From Candidatus Melainabacteria bacterium (GTDB lineage: Bacteria; Cyanobacteriota; Vampirovibrionia; 2-02-FULL-35-15): a stretch of DNA of 64,000 nt. The translations under genes were made by a program, and so were the position numbers. Positions 1,004 through 63,436 of the stretch are shown in pieces. A model generated the notes under the pieces. That model was given only the letters and a program-made list of their open reading frames with translations. It ran no database searches and was not told where the DNA came from. The DNA lies in the NCBI GenBank assembly GCA_023250155.1, contig JAHFBG010000005.1, positions 89,057-153,056 on the forward strand, written 5' to 3'. Each line of letters opens with the position of its first letter. Position 1 is the first letter of the stretch.

Positions 1004-3406
1004 ATGAATAAAGAAATAAAACAAAAAAACTTTAGAACTTTAGTTGATCTGTTTATTTGCATAGTTATTGTTTTAGTCTTATTTATACCTACAATAAGTA
1101 GACCTTGGATCTCTTATGATGAGAGAGGCATCACTAATGAGTTGTATCTGCCCATACCAACCTCTTTCCAAGAGATATACGAGATTATTGAAAGTTTTGG
1201 TTTAAATTATAGTGTAACTTCTTCAAATACCCTCTACAGTTCAAATTACATAACAAGAACATGTCCACTAAGTACAATCTTAACGCTATCAGTTTTATAT
1301 CTATTTAAGAGCAATTCAATTTACTATCACCTAATGAATTTGTGCTTACATTTAATAACTACTTGTCTTATTTTTATTATTTTAAAGAACTTGCTAAAAG
1401 CCTGTCCAAGACCGTTGATAATTCTTTTAACAATTCTCTGGGGAATTCATCCAGTAGAACTAGAGTCAGTATTATTATCAACAAACTTTGGAGCACTTAT
1501 ATCTTACATGTTCTTTTTTATCTTTCTATTAGACTTCTTAAAAAACAAAGAAAAAAATAAGTCCATTCTTCGACAATGCTTAATACCTCTACTCTTCATG
1601 ATTCCAATGCTCACCAATGAATATATAATCACACTCCCTCTTGTTCTATTTACATTCTCATTCTATGAAAATTATAAAAATAATGATTTTAGAAAAGCTA
1701 TTTCTTTAACCATCATTCACACTAAGCCTTATTTTATTGGACTATTTATATACATACTTTATTTCTTTTTTATATCTCACTACAGTATAAGCCAAACTTC
1801 AAACCATAACTATTTTCTTCTGTTAATAGAACGGGGTTTTTGGCTTTCTCCTCAAGTATTTTTTCACTTGATTAAGCTTGTTTTCTTTCCATTCAAGCTC
1901 TCAATTGATCAAGGAGTCTTTGTAACACTTGGAAAATCTTTATTTGACCCTTATTCTATTTTTTGTATTTTATTTATGTCTATTTGGCTTTTTGTACCAT
2001 TGATATTTTTTCTATCAAAAAGAAAACTAGAAAATCTATTTCTTTTAACCTGGTCTTTTTTCTTTGCTCTATTACCATTTCTACATATTCTTATGCCATC
2101 GTATACCCTTGCTGCAGAACGATATCTTTATGCTCCGTTAGCAATAATGATCATAGGGGTAGGAATCATGTTAAATGAAAACATCCATAAGTACGGGTCC
2201 CGCCCACAAAGTGGGCGAGGCTCGCTCGAAAACCGAGTGGCACGACCCGCACCTACTAGTAAGGGCATACTGCAGTATGCCCTTACACTAATCATAGTGC
2301 TTTGTTTCATGCGCTCATATATTCGAACACAGGACTGGAAAAATGATTTCACTCTTGCCAATTCAACTATTCAAATCACTGACAACTTACTGTTAAAAGG
2401 TATAAGAACACAAGACCTAGGACAAACATTTTTAAAATCAAATCCCAATAATCTTACTAAAGCTTATAAACACTTCACGAAAGCTCAAGAATACTTCTAC
2501 CAAGCCATAGAAAAACTAAAACAAGAAAAAAAAGAAAATCCAAAGATACCACTCATTCTAAAAAGCTATGGACTTGATTATGATTCTCTTAGTGTAAAAG
2601 CTATATATCTAATCTGTGTTGAACCGTTTAACAACAATTCAGAAAATAAAAAAGACTATGAAGATGCCTTGAGAATTCTTATCCCTTATTTAAAACACAT
2701 TAAGATCTTTGATCCACGCACGCTGGAACTCTATGCAAATCTCTTAATAAAAAATAATGATCTAGAAAGTGCAAAAAAGATTTTTCTTTATGCTTACAAT
2801 AAATACCCAACCCAGCAAACATTGCTAATTTCACTAATTCGGTTAAATAGAGATATTGAAAGAAACTTACCCGAAGCAAAAAATTATCTCTTAAAAGCTT
2901 TAAGGTTGTATCCTTATTCAAAAGATATATTGTTCGAAGCAGTAAGATACTATCAGACAGAGAACAATTTAGAAGAATATTCTAGATATGCATATTTATA
3001 TGGACTACGAGCTCACTCTGCTTTTACTTATAGAGAAGCACTTACAGGATTTTTAACTCTTGGAACTCTTGATAAAGCCAAACAAGCTGTAGAAAAACTC
3101 TTGAGACTTGATCCAAGCAATCCAAGAACTTTATATCTTGTAAGTAGTTACTATATAAAAATACAAAACTATGATCTAGCCATTACACTACTAAATCAAG
3201 CATTAACACTTAATCAAAATAAAGACAAACAACTCGAATTTGATTTAAATAACTTATTAGCTAACTTATATCTGGCTCAGGGAAGCATAGAACAAGGCAT
3301 TCACCACATAATAGAAGCATTAAATATAGACAAAGAAAATATAGTCAATAAAAACAAAATGAATGAACTAATTAAAAGATATAGACTAAACCTACATGTA
3401 CCTTAA
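1004..3406 (+). CDS. Polytopic membrane protein with C-terminal TPR repeats, TMTC/PMT-like GT-C glycosyltransferase candidate; carries an in-frame GC-rich repeat insertion
   Basis: N-terminal multi-TM domain with a D-E (SYDERG) motif in the first loop. Conserved FWLSPQVFFHLIKLVFFPF block shared with ORFs 12653..14908 and 31935..33962. C-terminal TPR-like helical repeats. Confidence 0.55.
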   Translation: MNKEIKQKNFRTLVDLFICIVIVLVLFIPTISRPWISYDERGITNELYLPIPTSFQEIYEIIESFGLNYSVTSSNTLYSSNYITRTCPLSTILTLSVLYLFKSNSIYYHLMNLCLHLITTCLIFIILKNLLKACPRPLIILLTILWGIHPVELESVLLSTNFGALISYMFFFIFLLDFLKNKEKNKSILRQCLIPLLFMIPMLTNEYIITLPLVLFTFSFYENYKNNDFRKAISLTIIHTKPYFIGLFIYILYFFFISHYSISQTSNHNYFLLLIERGFWLSPQVFFHLIKLVFFPFKLSIDQGVFVTLGKSLFDPYSIFCILFMSIWLFVPLIFFLSKRKLENLFLLTWSFFFALLPFLHILMPSYTLAAERYLYAPLAIMIIGVGIMLNENIHKYGSRPQSGRGSLENRVARPAPTSKGILQYALTLIIVLCFMRSYIRTQDWKNDFTLANSTIQITDNLLLKGIRTQDLGQTFLKSNPNNLTKAYKHFTKAQEYFYQAIEKLKQEKKENPKIPLILKSYGLDYDSLSVKAIYLICVEPFNNNSENKKDYEDALRILIPYLKHIKIFDPRTLELYANLLIKNNDLESAKKIFLYAYNKYPTQQTLLISLIRLNRDIERNLPEAKNYLLKALRLYPYSKDILFEAVRYYQTENNLEEYSRYAYLYGLRAHSAFTYREALTGFLTLGTLDKAKQAVEKLLRLDPSNPRTLYLVSSYYIKIQNYDLAITLLNQALTLNQNKDKQLEFDLNNLLANLYLAQGSIEQGIHHIIEALNIDKENIVNKNKMNELIKRYRLNLHVP
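2191..2288. repeat. GC-rich nested-palindrome element inserted in frame in a CDS (encodes ..SRPQSGRGSLENRVARPAPTSKGILQYAL..)
   Basis: Local GC spike in AT-rich CDS. Hairpins cgggtc..gacccg, cgcccac-aaa-gtgggcg, and perfect palindrome agggcatactgcagtatgccct. Shares the tcccgccca..ggcgaggctcgct core with the insert in the UbiD gene at 62501..62605. Confidence 0.5.
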
Positions 3407-3466: not shown

Positions 3467-5749
3467 TTAAAAATATTTTAAGACACAATTATGAATTGTA
3501 GCTTGCTGCTTTAAAATATCTTCACTAAAGGCATTAACAAATAACTTGTTTTTCTTAATCGTATGATCTATTTCCATGATCCGCTTCAGATACTTCGTAG
3601 CATCGATTTCACTTTGAAATAAAAGCATTACTTTAGTATTATAAGATTCTGGAAAAATAGCTACTTTTTCACTCAAATATACATTAAAAGTCCAATAAGC
3701 TCTCCTAGGAAAAGTAGAAATATATTTTTCTTGATCTGTAAATTCCAATAACATTGCTTTTGCATTAGGCAAATATTTATCTTCTATCTCAATAAGAGGC
3801 TTTAGCACACCTTCTTGAATTAATTTTTCAATCAATCCTAAATCAACAAATGGAGCTGTTCTACTATCTAAAAACAACCACTTAATATTTAATTCTTTTA
3901 TTAAATAGGGATCTAATGTTTGTAGCAAAGTAATATACGTTGCTTTTCTAGATAAGCTTGAGCCATTAATAGAGTAACAAGGTATCCCTACATAACCAAA
4001 TGGTAAAGAATTTATAGACAATCCACATTCATTGCTTTGTGAATGTTTTTGTAGATACTCAACAATTTCAGTAAATGATTTATCTGCATCTAATTTCCCC
4101 CTTAAGGATAATAATAAATTAGTTGAACTATTAAAAGTACTATCATGTAACCCAAGTTGAATTTTATTTATAAAATCATGATTTAAATAAATAGACGGGG
4201 AAAATATGCCACCTAAGACCAATGTTATAACTGGCTGGGAAATTATTATTACAACAAACAATATATTTTTGAATGTATTTAAAAATCTCACCCGCATTAC
4301 AAATGCCATATTGAATATACACAGTATAAATAAGCAAGTTAAAAGCTCATGTGCAGGATGATAAAGCCTTAAAATGTCTGGGGGAGAAGTCTTTATTAAG
4401 ACAAAAAATGGAATAATATATGAAATCAAAATAAATGACAGAATAAAATTTGTCCAAACAAAATTCTTTCGAATTAACCAGTAAACTACAAATATTGAAA
4501 ATATAAACTGTAACCCTAGTTCACATAAAAAATCCCATGAGAAAAAATTTATAATTCTATGATGATTTAAATCACCAAATCTACCAAAGACCTCAAATTG
4601 AAATGGGTTGGATTTTAGAAGATAGATAAAGAAATCTGGAATATAAGTATAATTTTGACTTATTATTGTAGTTGCTAAACCATTAAAAACTATAATTGCT
4701 ATAAAACAAATCAAACAAATCAGATTCTTAAGAACTAATGACTTGTAATTTGATTGGTTTTTAAATATCAGAAAGAGCATAGAAGACAATAATAAAGAAG
4801 CCATAAAAATATAAAGTATCCACTCTGCTGAATGAAATAACGCCAAAGAGGTAATGAGTATTGGTATTAAGTAAATAAAACTTGAAGTCTTACTTACAAA
4901 GTTAAAATACAAAAAAAGAAGTAGTAAAAAGAACTGAACACCTAAAGTAATTGATGCAAACATAATTCCAGCACTACCTAAATCACTCATGAAGCTTCCA
5001 TGCATTCCAAGAGCACAGACAGATTCAAATAAAGACCAGCTATTAGTAACAGGTTCAATTTTAAAAATATATCGAATTAATGAATCCAGCCAAAGTAAGT
5101 TCCCCGCAAAATAAAAAGCAATACTCCCGGCTAAAGCTTGCAAAAATGATTTTCCCTCTGTAAAAAAATAAACGATGGCAAAGCAAGAGAAAAAGATCAC
5201 AACTACTGAGGTAAGAACTACAAAATGAAATGAATTCAAAACACTAATATGCATGAGCTTAGACAATAATGCACTATATATATCAAAACCATAATGATAT
5301 GGAATAAAAATAGAAGGCCATGAGTATGTCCCTGTGGGAAATTTATCACTTGTAACAAAAAAAGATGCCTGTGAAAGATGGTACCCAAAATCCCAAATAG
5401 ATGACTTATTCAAAGTTAAGTAAGTGAAAAATAAAATAAAGGTACATATTATACTTAAAATTATTAGTTGTTTAAATTCTAATGTATTCTCAAATTTGAA
5501 AACTTTTTCCTTAAAAAAAAGTCCTACTGTAATCGAAATTAAAAATAAAATTAAAATCGATACTAAAGTAGCATTCTGTACACCAATGAAATAAGCCAAG
5601 CTATAAATTAATATTAAAAAAGATGCTGTACCAAATACAAAAGAAAAAGGAAATAAATAAACAATAGAGCTTATATCAAGCAAAGTTCTTAATACAACCC
5701 ATCCAAAAAAAGGTAATATTAAAAATAACAATGAATAAATAGTTATCAT
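3467..5749 (-). CDS. Large polytopic membrane protein, paralog A of a three-member family; putative GT-C-type glycosyltransferase with C-terminal soluble domain
   Basis: 760 aa, many TM helices. Conserved loop (IWDFGYH vs IHDQAWH / IHDKEFH) and C-terminal LDPxLxxELNIKW motif shared with 5803..8121 and 8121..10421. Confidence 0.45.
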   Translation of the reverse strand: MITIYSLLFLILPFFGWVVLRTLLDISSIVYLFPFSFVFGTASFLILIYSLAYFIGVQNATLVSILILFLISITVGLFFKEKVFKFENTLEFKQLIILSIICTFILFFTYLTLNKSSIWDFGYHLSQASFFVTSDKFPTGTYSWPSIFIPYHYGFDIYSALLSKLMHISVLNSFHFVVLTSVVVIFFSCFAIVYFFTEGKSFLQALAGSIAFYFAGNLLWLDSLIRYIFKIEPVTNSWSLFESVCALGMHGSFMSDLGSAGIMFASITLGVQFFLLLLFLYFNFVSKTSSFIYLIPILITSLALFHSAEWILYIFMASLLLSSMLFLIFKNQSNYKSLVLKNLICLICFIAIIVFNGLATTIISQNYTYIPDFFIYLLKSNPFQFEVFGRFGDLNHHRIINFFSWDFLCELGLQFIFSIFVVYWLIRKNFVWTNFILSFILISYIIPFFVLIKTSPPDILRLYHPAHELLTCLFILCIFNMAFVMRVRFLNTFKNILFVVIIISQPVITLVLGGIFSPSIYLNHDFINKIQLGLHDSTFNSSTNLLLSLRGKLDADKSFTEIVEYLQKHSQSNECGLSINSLPFGYVGIPCYSINGSSLSRKATYITLLQTLDPYLIKELNIKWLFLDSRTAPFVDLGLIEKLIQEGVLKPLIEIEDKYLPNAKAMLLEFTDQEKYISTFPRRAYWTFNVYLSEKVAIFPESYNTKVMLLFQSEIDATKYLKRIMEIDHTIKKNKLFVNAFSEDILKQQATIHNCVLKYF

Positions 5750-11684: not shown

Positions 11685-12656
11685 ATGAGAAAATATACTT
11701 TTCTCATTATCAAACTAGTTCTCTTTGTAGGAATTTGTACTTGGATAGTTAAGTCAGTCAATATCACAGAATCACTTAATGTACTAAAAAAAACAAACCT
11801 GCTTTATTACTTAATAGCTTTTTTATTAAGTAATCTATCCAATATTTTTCTAACAATAAAATGGCATCGATTATCAACACCACTAAATATAAAAAGCAAT
11901 TTTTGGGAGTTATTATGTTTGAATTATATTTCCGTCTTTTATAGCATTTTTATTCCTGGGCAAGCCTCTGGAGAGGTGATTAAAGGACTAAAATTGATAA
12001 AAAAAGAGGGGTCTCATCAAACCATCTGGGTACCAATATTTATCGATAAGATAACCAATGTTTTAATCGTGTTTATAATAGGGTCCATTGCTACTTTATT
12101 AGATAGTAATTTCAGAAAAAATACAAGCTTAGTTATTTTACTTATTACAATAACAGCATTACTAGTGCTTTTGACTTTAATTCTATTCAGTGAAAATACA
12201 ACAAAAATTGTAGATTTTCTAAAAAAAATCCTCATTAATATCCTAACTATATTTAAACTGAATACTCAATTTATTAAAAACTTTTCAGTGGATTATTTTG
12301 AAAATTATAAAAAACAAGATTTAATTCTCTTAGAAACATTAATGTGGAGCTTATTTATAAAAATTCCTCCTGTTTTTTCTTTGTATTTTTTAGCTTTGAG
12401 TTTAAATATTGATTTGAATATAATCCAATCCGCATGGCTATTTTCACTTGTTTCTGTCGTAAGCCTATTACCTATAAGTTTTTCAGGGCTTGGTGTTAGA
12501 GAAGGGACTATAATTGTTTTACTATCAAAAATTGGAATACCAAATTCATTCAGCTTGAGTTTGTCTATGCTAATCTTTACTACAGGAATATTAATGGGAC
12601 TAATAGGAGGAGCACTAGAGCTGGTTTCTAGCTTTAGACTATTTAAGTCAAAATGA
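11685..12656 (+). CDS. Integral membrane protein of the flippase-like / lysyl-PG-synthase-TM-like family (UPF0104-like)
   Basis: About 8 TM helices and no soluble domain. Sits in a glycan locus. Its 3' end overlaps the next gene (ATGA). Confidence 0.4.
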   Translation: MRKYTFLIIKLVLFVGICTWIVKSVNITESLNVLKKTNLLYYLIAFLLSNLSNIFLTIKWHRLSTPLNIKSNFWELLCLNYISVFYSIFIPGQASGEVIKGLKLIKKEGSHQTIWVPIFIDKITNVLIVFIIGSIATLLDSNFRKNTSLVILLITITALLVLLTLILFSENTTKIVDFLKKILINILTIFKLNTQFIKNFSVDYFENYKKQDLILLETLMWSLFIKIPPVFSLYFLALSLNIDLNIIQSAWLFSLVSVVSLLPISFSGLGVREGTIIVLLSKIGIPNSFSLSLSMLIFTTGILMGLIGGALELVSSFRLFKSK

Positions 12657-17535: not shown

Positions 17536-17877
17536 ATGAATACAACAATGAATGATCCTATTGAACAAAGAGTAAAAACACTAGAATTGAAAGTCGAGTT
17601 TCTTGAAAATTGGAAAAATACTCCTTTTATTCAAGTAACACTTCCAGTCATACTTTCTATTTTCTTGGCTACTTCCTGGAATAATTTTGGATTTACATCC
17701 ATTGATAAAAGATTTGACTCGGTAGAGAAGGGGATGAATAAACTATCATACAGAATTGGAAAGGTAGAAAATCGACTAGGTAAAGTAGAAAACCGATTAG
17801 GTAAAGTAGAAGATCGACTAGACAAAGTAGAGAATCGACTAGGTAAAGTAGAAGTCAAAATCGAAAGACTTAACTAG
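17536..17877 (+). CDS. Small membrane-anchored coiled-coil protein with five tandem heptads (KVENRLG)
   Basis: One central hydrophobic helix. The C-terminus is a 21-nt tandem repeat at 17757..17860 encoding GKVENRL x5. Confidence 0.4.
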   Translation: MNTTMNDPIEQRVKTLELKVEFLENWKNTPFIQVTLPVILSIFLATSWNNFGFTSIDKRFDSVEKGMNKLSYRIGKVENRLGKVENRLGKVEDRLDKVENRLGKVEVKIERLN

Positions 17878-22043: not shown

Positions 22044-22160
22044 AAAAGCATCTTTCATTCCACAGTGCCCTCCCTCAACTCCTCTGACCATTAACTAAGC
22101 GTTAACGGTTCCCCTCGGGGCATTCGGGAGTGGCACTGCTACATCATGCTTTTTTTTACA
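22044..22160 (+). repeat. Copy A of a ~110-nt nested-hairpin repeat element ending in a T-tract; probably acts as a terminator
   Basis: aaagcat…agtgccctccc…ccattaactaagcgttaacgg…cccctcgggg…gggagtggcact…atgcttttttt. Second copy at 23077..23185. Confidence 0.5.
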
Positions 22161-23076: not shown

Positions 23077-23185
23077 AAGCATCTTACACTCCATATTGCC
23101 TTCCCTCAGCCCCTCCGACCATTAACTAGGCGTTAACAGTTCCCGTCGGGACATTCGGGAATGGCAATATTAAATCGTGCTTTTT
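23077..23185 (+). repeat. Copy B of the nested-hairpin repeat element
   Basis: About 85% identical to copy A. Differences are compensatory in stems (agtgcc/ggcact becomes attgcc/ggcaat; ctccc/gggag becomes ttccc/gggaa). Confidence 0.5.
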
Positions 23186-50995: not shown

Positions 50996-52234
50996 GTGAT
51001 TCTAAAGAAGTTAAAACTTACCAATTTTAGGAATTACTTAGATTTCGAGGAAGGATTTCATCATTTAAAAACCATTATTATTGGCCAAAACGCACAGGGT
51101 AAAAGTAATATACTTGAAGCTATTAACATTCTTGCTACTAGTCAATCTGATAGAGCAGAAAAAGATAGTAATCTCGTATATTGGAATAAAGAGTACGCTC
51201 TTATATTTGCAAATATTAAAACAAAAGAAGATGACTTAGATATTGCTCTGCAAATAAATTCAACAGGAAGAAGAAAACTTAAAATGAATGGTGTAGCAAA
51301 AAAGGCTCCACAAGCCGATCTTGTAGGAAATTTTTTCAGTGTAATGTTTTCTTGCGATGATTTATATCTTATTAAAGGCTCGCCATCGATTCGAAGAAAC
51401 TGGATTGACAATGTATTATTTCAGCTTGACACAAAATACCATAAAGCTCTTCAAAACTATCAAAAATCAGTAGTTCAAAAAAACGCTCTTTTAAAAAAAG
51501 CACAAGAAGGCAACCTGTCAAGAAAAGCATTAAAGGAACAATTAGATATTTGGAATGAGCAAATTTTAAACTTTGGCACAGAGGTCATTTATACCAGAAT
51601 AAATTTTATAGCCGATCTACAACCCATAGCAAAAGACTTCCAGGACAGGATTTCAAAACAAACTGAAGATTTAGATATGATTTACAAGTCAACAATTCAG
51701 AACTTAGCACTCAGCACTCAGCTATCAGCTATCAGCACAGAAACAGAGAAGCAGGAGACAGGAGACAAGAAACAGGAAACAGAAGACAAGAAGATCATGC
51801 CTCATGCCTCATGTCTCAATCCCCAATCCTTGAGAGAATCCTTCAAACAAGCTCTTGATAAGTCCTTTGACGAAGAGTTAGCCCGTGGTCAGTCAGTAAT
51901 AGGTCCACATAGAGATGATTTAATATTTCTAATAAATAAAAAAGAAGCTAAATCATTTGCAAGCCAGGGACAACAAAGATCCTTTGTACTTTCTATAAAA
52001 CTTGCTGAGTTACAGATTATTGAAAACAGGAAAGGTGAAATCCCTGTTTTACTTTTAGATGATGTATTTGCAGAATTAGATGAAAGTAGACAGGATTTTC
52101 TATTACATAATTTGCCTAAAAATATACAAATTTTTTTAACTACAACTCATCTAAGTGATGTTCAAAAGGAGTTTTTACAAGAGGCACAAATATTAGAAGT
52201 AGAAGCAGGTAAAATAAAAGTAAAACATTTATAA
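50996..52234 (+). CDS. recF: DNA replication/repair protein RecF, with a ~45-aa low-complexity insertion
   Basis: LKLTNFRNY…GQNAQGKSNILEAI Walker A, C-terminal LLLDDVFAELD Walker B. Extra STQLSAISTETEKQETGDKKQETEDKK..PHASCLNPQSL segment. Confidence 0.85.
   Translation: MILKKLKLTNFRNYLDFEEGFHHLKTIIIGQNAQGKSNILEAINILATSQSDRAEKDSNLVYWNKEYALIFANIKTKEDDLDIALQINSTGRRKLKMNGVAKKAPQADLVGNFFSVMFSCDDLYLIKGSPSIRRNWIDNVLFQLDTKYHKALQNYQKSVVQKNALLKKAQEGNLSRKALKEQLDIWNEQILNFGTEVIYTRINFIADLQPIAKDFQDRISKQTEDLDMIYKSTIQNLALSTQLSAISTETEKQETGDKKQETEDKKIMPHASCLNPQSLRESFKQALDKSFDEELARGQSVIGPHRDDLIFLINKKEAKSFASQGQQRSFVLSIKLAELQIIENRKGEIPVLLLDDVFAELDESRQDFLLHNLPKNIQIFLTTTHLSDVQKEFLQEAQILEVEAGKIKVKHL
51706..51835. repeat. 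In-frame low-complexity microsatellite-like insertion in recF (cagcactcagctatcagctatcagc; ggagacaggagacaagaaacaggaaacagaagacaag; atgcctcatgcctcatg; ctcaatccccaatcc)
   Basis: Direct repeats read directly. Shares the tcaatcc motif with the UbiD insert. Confidence 0.45.
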
Positions 52235-57254: not shown

Positions 57255-60224
57255 ATGAACAAGTATATTCCAGCCAAATTATTTTTATCTTTTATATTAA
57301 TGGTCCAGTTATTGGTCTTACAAAATTTTTATCCTTTATATTCTCAAGCAGCGATGCCAACCTGTAGTGGAACCACAGCTGTATGCCCTTCTGGCCAAAC
57401 TGCGGTTTGTACAAATGGCCATGTTGGTACAGCAAAGTGTGTAGCACAAATTTATGGTGCACCTTATATACCAGGCTGTGAAACAGAGACTGCTTTCTAT
57501 ACTGATGATGCTAATTGTGTTAGCTCATCAACTACTAGCTCATCAACTACTAGTTCATCGACCACAAGCTCATCAACTACCAGCTCTACTAGTGGAACAT
57601 TGTCGATTACAAGTAATTCCCCTTTACCAAATGGCTCATTAAATACTTCTTACTTTAATTCACTTCAAGCTACAGGTGGTTCCCTTCCATATACCTGGTC
57701 ATGGGTTACTGGTTTCCTGCCAAGTGGTTTATTATTTACTACAAACGGTATATTGAACGGTACTCCTACTCAATCTGGTACTTTTACTCCTACCTTTAGA
57801 GTTACTGATTCTTTTAATCAAACTGCTCAACGAACTTTTTCTCTTACTATTGGAGCTCCTATATCAATTACAAGCAGTTCTGTTTTACCTAACGGTACAT
57901 CAAACTCTTTTTATTCTAATACACTTCAAGCTACTGGCGGCACTCTTCCTTACTCCTGGACATTTATTGCAGGTACTTTACCTAGTGGTTTATCATTTAG
58001 TTCTAATGGTGTTTTAAGTGGTACTCCTACTCAATCGGGTACATTCACTCCTACCTTTAGAGTTACTGATGCTTTTGGACAATCCAGCCAACAAACCTTC
58101 TCCCTTACAGTAAATTCTTTTCTGTCAATTACAACTAATGCTTTATCTAATGGTACTTTAAACTCTTTTTATTCCAATACACTTCAAGCTACTGGCGGCA
58201 ACCTTCCTTATACCTGGGCATTTATTGCAGGTACTTTACCTAGCGGTTTATCATTTAGTTCTAATGGTGTTTTAAGTGGTACTCCTACTCAATCGGGTAC
58301 ATTCACACCTACCTTTAGAGTTATTGATGCCATTGGACAATCTAGCCAAAGAACTTTCTCTCTTACTGTAAATTCCTCCCTATCAATTACAACTAGTGCT
58401 TTATCTAATGGTACTTTAAACTCTTTTTATTCCAATACACTTCAAGCTACTGGCGGCACTCTTCCTTACTCCTGGACATTTATTGCAGGTACTTTACCTA
58501 GTGGTTTATCATTTAGTTCTAACGGTGTCTTAAGTGGTACTCCTACCCAATCTGGTACTTTCACTCCTACCTTTAGAGTTACTGATGCTTTTGGACAATC
58601 CAGCCAACAAACCTTCTCTCTTACGGTAAATTCTTCTCTGTCAATTACAAGTACTACTTTATCTAACGGTACTTTAAACTCTTTTTATTCCAATACACTT
58701 CAAGCTACTGGCGGCACTCTTCCTTATTCTTGGTCATTTATTGCAGGTACTTTACCGAGTGGTTTATCATTTAGTTCTAATGGCGTTTTAAGTGGCACTC
58801 CTACTCAATCTGGTACATTCACTCCTACCTTTAGAGTTACTGATGCTCTTGGTAGCACTTTTCAAAGAACTTTCTCTCTTACTGTCAATTCTTCTCTATC
58901 AATTACAACTAGTGCTTTATCCAATGGTATTTTAAATACTTTTTACTCTTATACAGTCCAAGCTACTGGCGGTACTCTTCCATATAGCTGGTCACTTATT
59001 GCTGGTACTTTAGCAAGCGGTTTATCGTTTAGTTCAAATGGTATTGTAAGTGGTACTCCTACTCAAACAGGTACTTTTACTCCTACCTTTAGAGTTATTG
59101 ATGCCCTTGGACAGTCTAGCCAAAGAACTTTCTCTTATACCATTGCCTTACCATTATCTATTACAACTAGTCCTACCCTACCTAATGGTTCTCTAATTGC
59201 TTCTTACTCCAATACACTTCAAGCTACTGGTGGTACTCTTCCTTATACCTGGTCATTTATTGCTGGTACTTTACCTAGTGGTTTATCATTTAGCTCAAAT
59301 GGGGTTGTAAGTGGTACTCCTACTCAAACAGGCACATTCACTCCTACTTTTAGAGTTACTGATGCTCTTAGTCAATCTAGTCAACGAACTTTCTCCATTA
59401 CTGTAGATTCTTCTCAATGCCCTGTATGTCCACTTGGTTCTCCATTAGTACAATGCTCTAATACTTGTACACAACAAGTTATTAATTGTGAAGGAATGAG
59501 CTATACAAATAGCTGTGACTTCCAAATGAGTTATTGCGGCTGTATCCCAACAACATCTTCAAGCAGCTCATCATCTTCTTCAAGCAGCTCTTCTGGAGGG
59601 GTTTGTCAAAGACCTTGTGGAATAGGTTGTTGTACATCTAATCAACTCTGTGTTGTATATGATCCTTGTATGGGGAGTCCTGGTTGTTTAGCACCTATTG
59701 TTCAATATTGTGCTTCACCAACCGGTGGTGCAGTCAACCTCCCATTCTGTTCATATGGAAGTGTAATGTGTGATGTGGGTTCACCGTTGTGTTCTTCAGG
59801 AAGCAATCTTCCTATCTGTGGTTCAACACTAGGATTTACTGGTGACTTAGCTGGTCCTGCATGTACAAATCTAACAACAACAGTATTAAATGTAGGAAAT
59901 GTCTCTTGTTCACAACAACCTCTAAGCAGACTTTCTCTTGATAATGATGTTACTTGTAATAAGAACAAGCTGTGTCCATCAGGGAAGCGATATAGAGCTT
60001 GTAGAGAAGATAGAACAACATGTAAGTGTGTTTGTCCATTTAGAATTAGAGGACAAAAAGTTACACCTACTTGTAATTCCACAGATACACCAATCTGTTC
60101 AAAAGGCTTAACACCTAAGTGCGGAAATGAAAACAATATTCCATTCTGCTCTAAAGGAAAACTATTCTGTGTAGAACCAACTGCACAATCGATAGATTTA
60201 ACTGATACTATTGAGTGTAAGTAA
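57255..60224 (+). CDS. Secreted surface/adhesin-like protein: signal peptide, Ser/Thr-rich linker, ~7.5 tandem He_PIG/cadherin-like Ig repeats, poly-Ser tract, Cys-rich C-terminal domain
   Basis: MNKYIPAKLFLSFILMVQLLVL signal sequence. SSSTTSSSTT linker. ~81-aa repeats with LP.G..F...G.LSGTPT..GTF.PTFRV.D motif. S13GG tract. Many Cys in the last 230 aa. Confidence 0.65.
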   Translation: MNKYIPAKLFLSFILMVQLLVLQNFYPLYSQAAMPTCSGTTAVCPSGQTAVCTNGHVGTAKCVAQIYGAPYIPGCETETAFYTDDANCVSSSTTSSSTTSSSTTSSSTTSSTSGTLSITSNSPLPNGSLNTSYFNSLQATGGSLPYTWSWVTGFLPSGLLFTTNGILNGTPTQSGTFTPTFRVTDSFNQTAQRTFSLTIGAPISITSSSVLPNGTSNSFYSNTLQATGGTLPYSWTFIAGTLPSGLSFSSNGVLSGTPTQSGTFTPTFRVTDAFGQSSQQTFSLTVNSFLSITTNALSNGTLNSFYSNTLQATGGNLPYTWAFIAGTLPSGLSFSSNGVLSGTPTQSGTFTPTFRVIDAIGQSSQRTFSLTVNSSLSITTSALSNGTLNSFYSNTLQATGGTLPYSWTFIAGTLPSGLSFSSNGVLSGTPTQSGTFTPTFRVTDAFGQSSQQTFSLTVNSSLSITSTTLSNGTLNSFYSNTLQATGGTLPYSWSFIAGTLPSGLSFSSNGVLSGTPTQSGTFTPTFRVTDALGSTFQRTFSLTVNSSLSITTSALSNGILNTFYSYTVQATGGTLPYSWSLIAGTLASGLSFSSNGIVSGTPTQTGTFTPTFRVIDALGQSSQRTFSYTIALPLSITTSPTLPNGSLIASYSNTLQATGGTLPYTWSFIAGTLPSGLSFSSNGVVSGTPTQTGTFTPTFRVTDALSQSSQRTFSITVDSSQCPVCPLGSPLVQCSNTCTQQVINCEGMSYTNSCDFQMSYCGCIPTTSSSSSSSSSSSSSGGVCQRPCGIGCCTSNQLCVVYDPCMGSPGCLAPIVQYCASPTGGAVNLPFCSYGSVMCDVGSPLCSSGSNLPICGSTLGFTGDLAGPACTNLTTTVLNVGNVSCSQQPLSRLSLDNDVTCNKNKLCPSGKRYRACREDRTTCKCVCPFRIRGQKVTPTCNSTDTPICSKGLTPKCGNENNIPFCSKGKLFCVEPTAQSIDLTDTIECK
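57597..59410 (+). repeat. Tandem ~243-nt coding repeats (~7.5 copies); some units near-identical at nucleotide level
   Basis: Repeat units 2 and 4 encode identical peptide stretches (TLPYSWTFIAGTLPSGLSFSSNGVLSGTPTQSGTFTPTFRVTDAFGQSSQQTFSLTVNS). Confidence 0.7.
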
Positions 60225-61783: not shown

Positions 61784-63436
61784 ATGGCCTACAGAGATCT
61801 TAGAGAGTTCTTAAATAAACTTGAGGAGCTAAATGAACTTCAAAGAATAAGAGTTCAGGTTGACCCTTATTTAGAAGTCTCTGAAATTACAGATAGGGTC
61901 TCAAAGGGTATACATGAGAAAAACAAAGCCTTACTTTTCGAAAATATTAAAGGGTATCAGATTCCAATATTGATTAATACCTTAGGCTCTTATAAAAGAA
62001 TGAATCTAGCTCTTGGTATTAATTCCTTTAAAGAGATTGCTCAAAGGATTGAAAAGTTCCTTGAAAAGAAAGTACCTGACAATCTTATTGGCAAATTAGG
62101 TATGCTGCCAAAATTAATAGAACTAGCCTCAATCCCTCCCAAAATGACTAAATTTGCTCCATGCCAAGAAATAGTGATTACAAATCCAGCTGAGCCTATG
62201 TTAGATAAGCTCCCTATTATTACAGCATGGCCTGAAGATGCAGCCCCTTTTATTACACTTACAGTAGTTATTACTAAAGATCCAAAAACAGGTGTTAGAA
62301 ACATTGGAATGTATAGGCTTCAAAAGCTCAACAATAGTACTACCTGCATGCACTGGCATAAGCATCATGATGGAGCACAAAACTATTTAGAAACAGCTAT
62401 TGAATCCCAGTTAAATCAAGTTAAAGATACTTTGTGTAAGGAAGTAAGTGCTATTGAAAACGAAAAAGCTCTAGAAGAATTTGTTGGTATAATGAGCAAT
62501 CCGCGGTCAGCGGTCAACAATCAGCCAACAGCTTCTACTCAATCCTCAATCCTCCCGCCCAATGAGGCGAGGCTCGCTGGAAGCGGCAATCCTCAATCCT
62601 CCCGTAAAATGGAAGTAGCTGTAGTTATAGGCTGTGATCCTAGTGTTATGTACGCAGCATCAGCACCTCTTCCACCAGGAATAGATGAGTTTCTATTTGC
62701 TGGATTTTTAAGAAGTTCACCAGTAGAACTTATTAAGTGTAAAACAATAGATGTTGAAGTTCCTGCAACAAGCGAAATAGTCCTAGAAGGATATGTAGAT
62801 TTAGATGAACTTACTACTGAAGGTCCATTTGGAGATCATACAGGCTTTTACAGTATGCCAGCCTTATTCCCAAAATTTCATATTACAGCAATGACACATA
62901 GAAAAGATCCTATTTATTCAACCATTATTGTAGGAAAACCTCCTATGGAGGATTGTTATATGGGTAAAGCAACAGAACAAATTTTCTTACCTTTAATTAG
63001 AGTGTTTTTACCTGAAATTGTAGATATGAATTTACCATTTGAAGGCGTATTTCACAATTGTGCAATAGTAAGCATAAAGAAAAAATACCCTGCACATGCA
63101 AAAAAAGTAATGAGTGCTATTTGGGGTATAGGACAATTAATGTTTACAAAATATGTTATCGTCGTAGATGATGATATCAATGTTCATGATTTATCTGAGG
63201 TGGCATTTAAAGTTTTTGCAAATACTGATCCCAAGCGTGACTCAATGTTTAGTGAAGGACCTACCGATATATTAGATCATGCATCTACCATATCGTCTAT
63301 CAGTGGCAAGATGGGACTAGATGCTACAAGAAAATGGAAATCAGAAGGATATACCCGTCAGTGGCCTTCTGAAATGACCATGGATTCTAAGACCAAAGAT
63401 CTTGTATCAAATCGATGGAATGAGTACGGTTTATAA
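61784..63436 (+). CDS. UbiD-family (prenylated-FMN-dependent) decarboxylase with ~45-aa in-frame GC-rich insertion
   Basis: N-terminal YRDLREFLNKLEE…, FENIKGY; central and C-terminal UbiD blocks. 550 aa, longer than typical UbiD because of the SNPRSAVNNQPTASTQSSILPPNEARLAGSGNPQSS insert. Confidence 0.8.
   Translation: MAYRDLREFLNKLEELNELQRIRVQVDPYLEVSEITDRVSKGIHEKNKALLFENIKGYQIPILINTLGSYKRMNLALGINSFKEIAQRIEKFLEKKVPDNLIGKLGMLPKLIELASIPPKMTKFAPCQEIVITNPAEPMLDKLPIITAWPEDAAPFITLTVVITKDPKTGVRNIGMYRLQKLNNSTTCMHWHKHHDGAQNYLETAIESQLNQVKDTLCKEVSAIENEKALEEFVGIMSNPRSAVNNQPTASTQSSILPPNEARLAGSGNPQSSRKMEVAVVIGCDPSVMYAASAPLPPGIDEFLFAGFLRSSPVELIKCKTIDVEVPATSEIVLEGYVDLDELTTEGPFGDHTGFYSMPALFPKFHITAMTHRKDPIYSTIIVGKPPMEDCYMGKATEQIFLPLIRVFLPEIVDMNLPFEGVFHNCAIVSIKKKYPAHAKKVMSAIWGIGQLMFTKYVIVVDDDINVHDLSEVAFKVFANTDPKRDSMFSEGPTDILDHASTISSISGKMGLDATRKWKSEGYTRQWPSEMTMDSKTKDLVSNRWNEYGL
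62501..62605. repeat. GC-rich repeat element inserted in frame in the UbiD gene; contains a ctcaatcctcaatcctcccg direct repeat and the shared tcccgccca…ggcgaggctcgct core
   Basis: Sequence read directly. The core matches the element at 2191..2288. Confidence 0.5.

Follow-up and report, generated by a model that had tools for sequence, protein, structure and literature searches.

The tandem repeat STRR1, reportedly described by Mazel and colleagues in 1990, has the heptanucleotide CCCCAGT as its unit, and the SDR elements of Nostoc punctiforme, associated with the 2008 work of Elhai and colleagues, are said to be tiny hairpin-forming dispersed elements embedded in tandem heptamers and other small repeats. 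Arrays of the heptamer GGGGA(C/T)T are spread over the chromosome of Anabaena (Nostoc) PCC 7120, where about one third of them are intragenic and most are intergenic, with a preference for arrays of four units (Rehm et al., 2015; PMC4692102). The present work concerns a tract of tandem heptanucleotides inside the recF gene of a Candidatus Melainabacteria bacterium, located in a stretch of 64,000 nucleotides with a GC content of about 31% (assembly GCA_023250155.1, contig JAHFBG010000005.1, positions 89,057 to 153,056 of the forward strand), which is called the window below and whose own numbering is used.

In the account that PMC10969869 gives of studies of 2000 and 2002, the elements called RPE are in-frame repeats in unrelated housekeeping genes, occupying positions compatible with the fold and adding an extra peptide. 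Measured against that account, the recF loop, a linker of UbiD and an open reading frame (ORF) of 800 aa in the window likewise carry in-frame inserts. RPE are, by the same account, palindromes of about 100–150 bp belonging to defined dispersed families, whereas the recF tract is non-palindromic, single in the window and made of tandem heptamers. As far as that source describes them, the analogy suits the palindromic elements in the recF loops of related species better than it suits the tract of the window.

The reading that we consider likely is that recF carries here a lineage-specific, in-frame compound heptanucleotide tract of the cyanobacterial short-tandem-repeat type, tolerated at the surface of RecF domain II in a permissive loop. 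Tandem heptamers and in-frame repeat DNA in housekeeping genes are both already known kinds, and the recF tract is another case of them.

A Compound Heptanucleotide Tract in recF

The tract and its parts were located as follows.

50996..52234, + strand: recF coding sequence with a GTG start, 412 aa (ORF list, TIGR00611 and PDB 5z67).
51697..51829, + strand: entire repeat tract of 19 heptanucleotides in one register, 133 nt, encoding roughly residues 235–278 (Tandem Repeats Finder (TRF), unit reading and lag-7 statistics).
51697..51738, + strand: array A, TCAGAAC TTAGCAC TCAGCAC TCAGCTA TCAGCTA TCAGCAC (TRF period 7, TCAGCAC ×6.0, 80% matches).
51739..51794, + strand: array B, eight purine-rich units, AGAAACA GAGAAGC AGGAGAC AGGAGAC AAGAAAC AGGAAAC AGAAGAC AAGAAGA (TRF and unit reading).
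51795..51815, + strand: array C, TCATGCC TCATGCC TCATGTC (TRF period 7, TCATGCC ×3.4 at 51795–51818, 94% matches).
51816..51829, + strand: array D, TCAATCC CCAATCC, which includes AATCCCC and encodes LNPQS (unit reading).

Within array B, TRF called CAGGAGA ×5.3 at 51752–51788; the array can alternatively be read as a 21-nt repeat present 2.7 times, and it encodes the peptide KQETGDKKQETEDKK. Period-14 and period-21 harmonics were added by the program to the three period-7 arrays. Across the 133 nt, identity at lag 7 was 65%, compared with 26–32% at lags 5, 6, 8 and 9. The best 35-nt window matched itself at lag 7 in 29 of 35 positions, a score not reached in any of 100 first-order Markov versions of the window even when the maximum over lags 4–12 was taken (simulated maximum 26). 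No second lag-7 site reached the threshold in the 64 kb, so that the recF tract is the sole strong period-7 signal there. A comparison of the tract with the rest of the window revealed no shared 13-mer or longer word, only 9- to 12-mers at chance level.

The GC content of the tract was 45%, against 31% in the remainder of recF. If reiterated, all units with the sole exception of TTAGCAC are free of stop codons in the three coding-strand frames, and most of the TCA-type units give TGA stops on the opposite strand. The longest perfect runs within the arrays extend over 2.0–2.7 units. The original prediction, which was made from the letters of the window and placed a microsatellite-like, low-complexity in-frame insertion in recF at 51706–51835, quoted four repeat strings that are all present in the sequence. 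The insertion is real, but its register is 51697–51829 and starts slightly more upstream; likewise the low-complexity, in-frame nature of the repeat holds, whereas its precise form is that of compound heptanucleotide arrays and not of a generic microsatellite.

Comparison With Cyanobacterial Heptamer Repeats

As in the STRR and GGGGA(C/T)T repeats, the unit is 7 nt long, units are arranged head to tail, and the arrays are imperfect, with few to several units, at many loci there and at two loci in the 64 kb of the window. The host differs, being a non-photosynthetic member of the Melainabacteria with a genome of 31% GC. The arrays of Nostoc are mostly intergenic, whereas those of the clade studied here lie inside ORFs and in frame, except for one array of CTTACCA ×4.3 in a related locus (L086; P and L numbers are our own identifiers for proteins and loci). 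This exception, at 1884–1913 of L086, was observed at the extreme 5′ end of the ORF called as recF (protein P0028); the real start of the gene probably follows the array, which would explain the apparent N-terminal extension of that protein. A further difference is that most of the recF units (TCAGCAC, AGGAGAC, TCATGCC) are not of the G4 type of Nostoc, and that the tract chains several unit types in one register, unlike the STRR and GGGGA(C/T)T arrays.

On the other strand, GGGGA(C/T)T takes the forms AATCCCC and AGTCCCC, the first of which occurs once in array D of recF and several times in the recF loop of a relative (L084). The units of the UbiD arrays described below, AATCCTC and AGTCCTC, are one base away from the complement of GGGGA(C/T)T, and arrays A–C of recF use other units. 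Moreover, when the translations of (CTCAGTC)n and (CTCAATC)n were used as queries, the matches were short hypothetical ORFs that consist of repeated LSPQSSV or LNPQSSI. Those with a named source belong mainly to Trichocoleus and Coleofasciculus, which are filamentous cyanobacteria. Judged from these sequences, the heptamer habit appears to be common to Cyanobacteria and their non-photosynthetic sister group. Two heptamer array loci were found in the 64 kb of the window (recF and UbiD), and two in the 21.6 kb of a related contig, L093 (UbiD and PmbA).

The Tract Encodes a Loop Modelled as Disordered in an Intact RecF

The features that define the ATPase, and the part of the tract modelled as disordered, are given below in order along the gene.

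51083..51106, + strand: Walker A codons, GQNAQGKS, residues 30–37 (translation).
51713..51811, + strand: codons of residues 240–272, modelled as disordered (AlphaFold2, pLDDT below 50 for residues 240–242 and 244–272).
51962..51979, + strand: ABC signature codons, SQGQQR, residues 323–328, 3′ of the tract (translation).
52049..52063, + strand: Walker B codons, LLLDD, residues 352–356 (translation).

The translated ORF matched the RecF equivalog model TIGR00611 over profile positions 1–339 of 339, scoring 309.7 bits where 172 is the cut-off (E 2.4e-92), and the RecF of Thermoanaerobacter tengcongensis (PDB 5z67) with an E-value of 2e-51. Walker A (G30, N32–K36), the signature and Walker B are invariant across 41 RecF relatives and stand in the correct order in the RecF of the window. 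The gene order recF, DciA-domain gene and gyrB was found in the window and in all the close relatives fetched. By these sequence features, the ORF at 50996..52234 is a bona fide RecF gene with all the ATPase motifs intact.

Like the RecF proteins of T. tengcongensis and Deinococcus radiodurans (5z67, 2o5v), this protein is a two-domain ATPase of the ABC type with Walker A, signature and Walker B. It aligns with 5z67 over its full length except for one loop, longer on the side of the window. There, residues 232–278 take the place of chain residues 228–240, which makes the loop about 34 aa longer. In the AlphaFold2 model, built on an alignment of 41 relatives (mean predicted local distance difference test score (pLDDT) 81.8), the tract corresponds to a domain II loop that runs from the strand 226–231 to the helix 276–289. 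The flanks were modelled better than the loop, with 10-residue block means of 90 (residues 221–230) and 94 (residues 281–290). In the nomenclature of TTERecF, the tract falls within domain II (lobe II), ahead of the signature-bearing strand and loop, and its site differs from the αD/αE position where the coiled coil of Rad50 and SMC emerges (PMC5794780). The original prediction had placed the insertion between Walker A and Walker B, which is true and uninformative, the real site being the loop of domain II.

The peptide encoded by the tract is polar and of low complexity, and it is modelled as disordered. A phmmer search with the 46-aa insert peptide IQNLALSTQLSAISTETEKQETGDKKQETEDKKIMPHASCLNPQSL against 1.84 billion representative proteins gave no match at E ≤ 0.001, which rules out a conserved peptide or domain as the content of the insert. 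Thus, the register of the tract and the RecF alignment bear out the in-frame, repeat-encoded, low-complexity insertion that had been proposed, and the alternative of a structured, conserved domain at that place is contradicted by the pLDDT below 50 at residues 240–272 and by the lack of homologs of the peptide. RecF probably still works, since neither Walker A nor the signature nor Walker B is part of the loop.

A separate observation concerns Walker B. The independently assembled contig L081 of the European Nucleotide Archive (ENA) assembly ERZ27276474 carries, as its one difference from the window in 7082 nt, a G to C change at window position 52061, which turns codon 356 of recF from D to H. 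It is either a real population variant of the ATPase site or an assembly error.

The Same Loop Holds Other Repetitive DNA in Related Species

The close family consisted of 76 RecF proteins of 365–411 aa with 56–71% identity to the RecF of the window, the nearest at about 71%. Between Y230 and F283 the loop measures 52 aa in the window, longer than in any of these relatives (median 20, range 8–45). Nearly all the length variation of the family sits in this loop, whose length correlates with total RecF length (r = 0.81). In more distant Melainabacteria the RecF loop spans 6–63 aa. The relatives with a loop of 8 aa retain every RecF motif, and two proteins as close as 82% identity (P0017 and P0003) still differ by 16 aa in loop length. 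The segment was suspected of being hypervariable, and between species it proved to be so, with 8–52 aa in the close family and 6–63 aa in the more distant Melainabacteria.

The DNA of the loop was then compared in six relatives. In L082 (protein P0007) the recF loop holds an in-frame palindromic element, GTCATTGCGAGG…TTCGCAATGAC (L082 3713–3806), of which shortened remnants were found in L086 (2664–2693) and, by peptides alone (VIA…NDK), in P0003, P0010 and P0015. The loop of L087 (P0036) contains a perfect 30-nt palindrome nested in an element of the L082 type (935–1002). Perfect 20-nt palindromes are present in the two nearest relatives, GCGAGGCTCCGGAGCCTCGC in L088 (P0002; 1458–1477) and GCGAGGTTGCGCAACCTCGC in L090 (P0011; 850–869). 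These two differ from each other by compensatory changes on both arms; therefore, the palindrome itself is being maintained. Heptamers were found again in the loop of L084 (P0034), where GGGAATA ×2.6 faces CCCCAAT-type units ×4.3.

Elements of the palindromic family GTCATTGCGAGG…TCGCAATGAC were detected in frame both in the RecF loop and in the UbiD linker of related Melainabacteria, read as VIARS…EIAS…NDK or as RHCEE…RRSNL…MEIASP.ARNDVS. Since other repeat DNA occupies the loops of sister species, several independent events of insertion or expansion must have taken place at the RecF loop, where repeat DNA of at least three kinds has settled on separate occasions in sister lineages.

The length of the loop also bears on a further explanation, in which a charged, flexible peptide (…TETEKQETGDKKQETEDKK…) was selected for altering the interaction of RecF with DNA, RecR or RecO. 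Preservation of the frame across 133 nt, a loop exceeding those of all 76 close relatives, and long acidic loops at the same position in P0081, P0088, P0098 and P0105 from other Melainabacteria would be in keeping with such an adaptive linker. However, the sequence of the insert peptide is not conserved in any relative, disorder is predicted for it, the DNA repeat determines its composition (the 7-aa periodicity results from three times 7 nt), and the relatives with 8-aa loops keep all the motifs. We regard an adaptive origin as highly improbable.

No Sign of Present-Day Slippage in the Genomes Compared

The unit of 7 nt is not a multiple of 3, so that the frame is kept solely by changes of three units. 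If one or two units are added or removed, the frame shifts to a stop at residue 277 or 290, and for one unit this holds in every array. The stop precedes the signature and Walker B, and a null allele is predicted. Together with the variation in length of this RecF site between species, this raises the question of an active contingency locus, in which slippage of the heptamers at replication would switch RecF off (by truncation) and on, and in this way modulate recombinational repair in the population. As far as it is described in PMC8262952, a heptanucleotide tract drives the phase variation of HMW1A in H. influenzae, and the recF tract resembles that simple-sequence-repeat contingency locus in being a tandem heptanucleotide whose change in copy number would alter the output, here by truncating RecF. 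The resemblance ends at the runs of recF, which reach at most 2.7 perfect units, and at the identity of three assemblies.

Indeed, the arrays are only 80–94% matched. Known contingency loci are long, perfect tracts that vary between strains and within populations, and runs of ≤2.7 units look far too short for this behavior. Moreover, the tract was identical base for base in the window, in the Logan assembly SRR14366787 (4939 nt identical) and in the ENA assembly ERZ27276474, which differs from the window by one single-nucleotide polymorphism in 7082 nt, outside the tract. No variant in loop length was found within the examined clusters of ≥90% identity. The location of the tract in the middle of a housekeeping repair gene is a further argument against a switch, and the non-repetitive or palindromic DNA that relatives carry at the same site is left unexplained by it.

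The comparison of recF alleles that the original prediction had proposed thus gave no length variants among the three assemblies or within the clusters, and the degenerate runs do not agree with its suggestion of a present-day slippage-prone segment. This comparison draws on a thin sampling of two to three genomes, as assemblies rather than reads. A contingency locus is, in our judgment, very unlikely, and the observations fit an old, decaying array and not a working one.

Heptamer Arrays and a Double-Hairpin Element in UbiD and Other Genes

Besides recF, heptamers were found in the gene of UbiD (61784..63436), and the insert there introduces a second repeat, for which the following copies were located in the window.

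62538..62601, + strand: (AATCCTC)×4 array of UbiD, split by a 33-nt GC-rich double-hairpin element at 62555–62587 (TRF and excision test).
2200..2241, + strand: second copy of the double-hairpin element, in frame in the 800-aa ORF at 1004..3406 (element comparison).

UbiD contains a linker of about 65 aa, which has no counterpart in the UbiD of E. coli and is hypervariable among relatives. Many relatives hold the palindromic element family in frame in this linker (P0129, P0134, P0139, P0142, P0148, P0164 and P0175), with peptides like RHCEE…RRSNLTSVMEIASPSARNDVS. Several species have heptamer arrays where the linker ends on its 3′ side, immediately ahead of RKMEVAV: (CTCAGTC)×4.4, perfect, in L093; CTCAATC CTCAATC CTCAGCC CTCAGTC in L092; and, in the window, CTCAATC ×2.4 (62538–62554) and CAATCCT ×2.1 (62587–62601), which flank the 33-nt GC-rich block. 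The arrays A, C and D of recF and those of UbiD have the common form CTCA+NNN, and the peptide signature of (CTCAATC)n, LNPQS, appears both in RecF (CLNPQSL) and in UbiD (NPQSS, QSSIL). The motif tcaatcc, which had been noticed in both inserts, is accounted for by these UbiD arrays at 62538–62554 and 62587–62601.

When exactly 62555–62587 was excised from UbiD, four perfect AATCCTC units were restored, with no target duplication. In the same way, the PmbA/TldD gene of L093 carries at 12610–12639 the block CCGCC-GTA-GGCGAGGCTCGCC-AAG-GGCGGC, and the excision of these 30 nt gave (ATCAACC)×4. These two copies of the double-hairpin element sit exactly inside four-unit heptamer arrays. The element is 30–42 nt long, has the form CCGCC-loop-GGCGAGG / CTCGCY-loop-RGCGGC, and inserts between TC and A. 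This mode of insertion, with no duplication of the target, would by analogy fit a single-strand transposition of the IS200/IS605 or RAYT type. In the copy of the 800-aa ORF, a membrane/TPR protein, the element occupies the loop of a further hairpin (GGGTC…GACCC; 2191–2252), and it is followed by a perfect 28-nt palindrome, GTAAGGGCATACTGCAGTATGCCCTTAC, at 2257–2284; the GC content of the block is 68%, in a genome of 31% GC.

A scan of metagenome contigs with TCCCGCC-N3-10-GGCGAGGCTCGCY yielded at least 120 stretches (loci L094–L213), with more than 100 copies of the element. Its hosts include many low-GC uncultured bacteria. Among the matches listed, 86 instances in contigs of ≤50% GC consist of two adjacent hairpins whose variable extensions are self-complementary: 72 of the 84 possible nested pairs were found in hairpin 1 (21.7 ± 4.1 in shuffles), and 90 of 145 in hairpin 2 (23.9 ± 5.2). 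Several instances have C or T at the last base of the CTCGCY arm, paired with G or A at the first base of the RGCGGC arm. Again among the matches listed, 29 of the 46 instances in contigs of ≤46% GC lie within stop-free spans of at least 150 codons. Heptamers beside the element were scarce, since only 3 of 102 flanks in the matches listed passed the strict threshold, with a lag-7 identity of 0.31 compared with 0.27–0.29 in left flanks; therefore, the link between element and heptamers is clade-specific or occasional.

At the gathering threshold, Rfam recognised one tRNA only in the whole window, and an E-value search of 12 element-bearing loci gave no match at the double-hairpin element. A literature search on the core motif returned irrelevant matches only. 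The element, rather than the recF tract, is the most novel thing seen in this study. In UbiD, PmbA and the 800-aa ORF it resembles in behavior the SDR elements reported from N. punctiforme; the likeness concerns the UbiD insert, the recF tract being without the double-hairpin core.

Two observations were made beside these loci. In two related contigs (L096 405–567 and L149 ~4650–4830), a partial copy of tRNA-Lys adjoining an intact tRNA-Lys carries the element at its D-loop position (AGCTC^AGTGG). The two tRNA-Lys loci are of one kind and thus amount to a single event, and the idea of the tRNA D-loop as an insertion target was dropped. Upstream of UbiD in L093 (8507–9844, minus strand), one gene appears in the ORF calls as two pieces, 301 and 86 aa long, that match the EPSP_synthase family of Pfam and lie on either side of a gap of 170 nt. 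It is probably MurA, and the gap possibly stems from a frameshift, a sequencing error or an insertion.

Was Part of the recF Tract Imported?

In another explanation, local amplification is not the origin: the recF tract, wholly or in part, would have come in as a small non-autonomous element or alongside one, the candidates being the double hairpin and a palindrome resembling a miniature inverted-repeat transposable element (MITE). This explanation is kept in play by L109, an unrelated contig of 50% GC, in which the double-hairpin element is followed directly by 18 nt, GACAAGAAACAGGAAACA, identical to array B, so that GDKKQET occurs in both proteins. There the element is in frame in an ORF of a class I aminoacyl-tRNA synthetase that has HIGH- and KMSKS-type motifs in its translation and resembles IleRS. 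The identity is unlikely to be due to chance (of the order of 1e-5 for the flanks examined, by our own estimate). The loops of RecF relatives hold palindromic elements of dispersed families, the element of 30–33 nt in UbiD and PmbA/TldD shows how exactly heptamer arrays can be entered, its copies in metagenome contigs exceed 100, and the tract is richer in GC than the rest of recF.

The tract itself, however, lacks several properties of such an element. Folded as DNA it reaches −9.8 kcal/mol (z = +0.57 against shuffles), its best inverted repeat (I1) spans 23 nt with 74% complementarity, and the double-hairpin core is absent from it. These values rule out a hairpin or MITE identity for the recF tract, an identity that does hold for the loops of the relatives. 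The tract shares with such elements the in-frame position at the surface of a conserved protein; instead of multiple near-identical copies, the 18 nt in L109 were the sole match. The absence of another copy or a shared 13-mer in the 64 kb, the lack of matches of its peptide among 1.84e9 proteins and the weakness of the heptamer signal beside the element (3 of 102 flanks) point in the same direction. An import of the tract is considered unlikely on balance.

Other Repeats in the Window

Additionally, three repetitive regions were observed elsewhere in the window. At 22065–22156 and 23083–23165, separated by about 1 kb, lie two GC-rich blocks (60%) that resemble each other (…CCTCTGACCATTAACTAAGCGTTAACGGTTCCCCTCGGGGCATTCGGGAGTGGCAC…); they gave no Rfam match at the gathering threshold and could be a repeated structured RNA or element. 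At 57657–59415 a 258-nt tandem repeat is present 6.8 times with 83% matches, preceded by a 15-nt repeat ×4.4 (57521–57586), at a GC content raised to 36–39%; presumably a large protein with an array of repetitive domains is encoded here. Finally, a 21-nt tandem repeat ×4.3 (GTAGAAAATCGACTAGGTAAA) at 17764–17853, the sole other strong lag-21 signal in the window, presumably encodes a 7-aa protein repeat.

Origin of the Tract and Its Meaning

The course of events that would best account for a tolerated heptanucleotide tract in the domain II loop starts with heptamers of the CTCA-NNN type, which may have been amplified locally, by slipped-strand or template-switch events, or imported with a small mobile element. 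Selection would have retained, in permissive loops, those versions that preserve the frame and lack stops, and the arrays would later have been eroded by point mutation to the present ≤2.7 perfect units. From its disorder and lack of conservation, the resulting peptide is probably a passenger without specific function.

Several points weigh against this interpretation. An “empty” allele of the recF of this species was not found, the nearest relative being about 71% identical, and the way in which the arrays originated is deduced rather than directly seen. The survey covered about 64 kb of the genome and, from close relatives, tens of kb, and the apparent concentration of arrays in recF and UbiD is biased because the loci of relatives were all fetched via recF or UbiD. 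The neutrality of the peptide would follow from predicted disorder and from lack of conservation, and the 18-nt identity between array B and L109 hints that part of the tract may be imported and not amplified in place.

A broader proposal, which we put forward tentatively and as less than an even chance, is that of a two-part repeat system, composed of heptamer arrays, typically of four units, and the 30–33-nt double-hairpin element, that may be common to Melainabacteria, many low-GC uncultured bacteria and Cyanobacteria. Such a system would survive preferentially in coding regions and keep remodelling the surface loops of housekeeping proteins, and the recF tract would be its old, decayed product.

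For annotation, recF is intact and its oddity is a tolerated disordered loop; therefore, annotation and structure tools should not call a frameshift, a fusion or a new domain at this place. Heptamers of the cyanobacterial type exist in the non-photosynthetic sister lineage too, inside genes and in frame. The same permissive loops, those of RecF domain II and the UbiD linker, have been hit again and again by repetitive DNA of several kinds, which makes these loops natural markers for strain typing. The filled sites, and the “empty” sites that can be restored from them, constitute a concrete system for studying the movement of very small repeats and the tolerance of proteins toward them.

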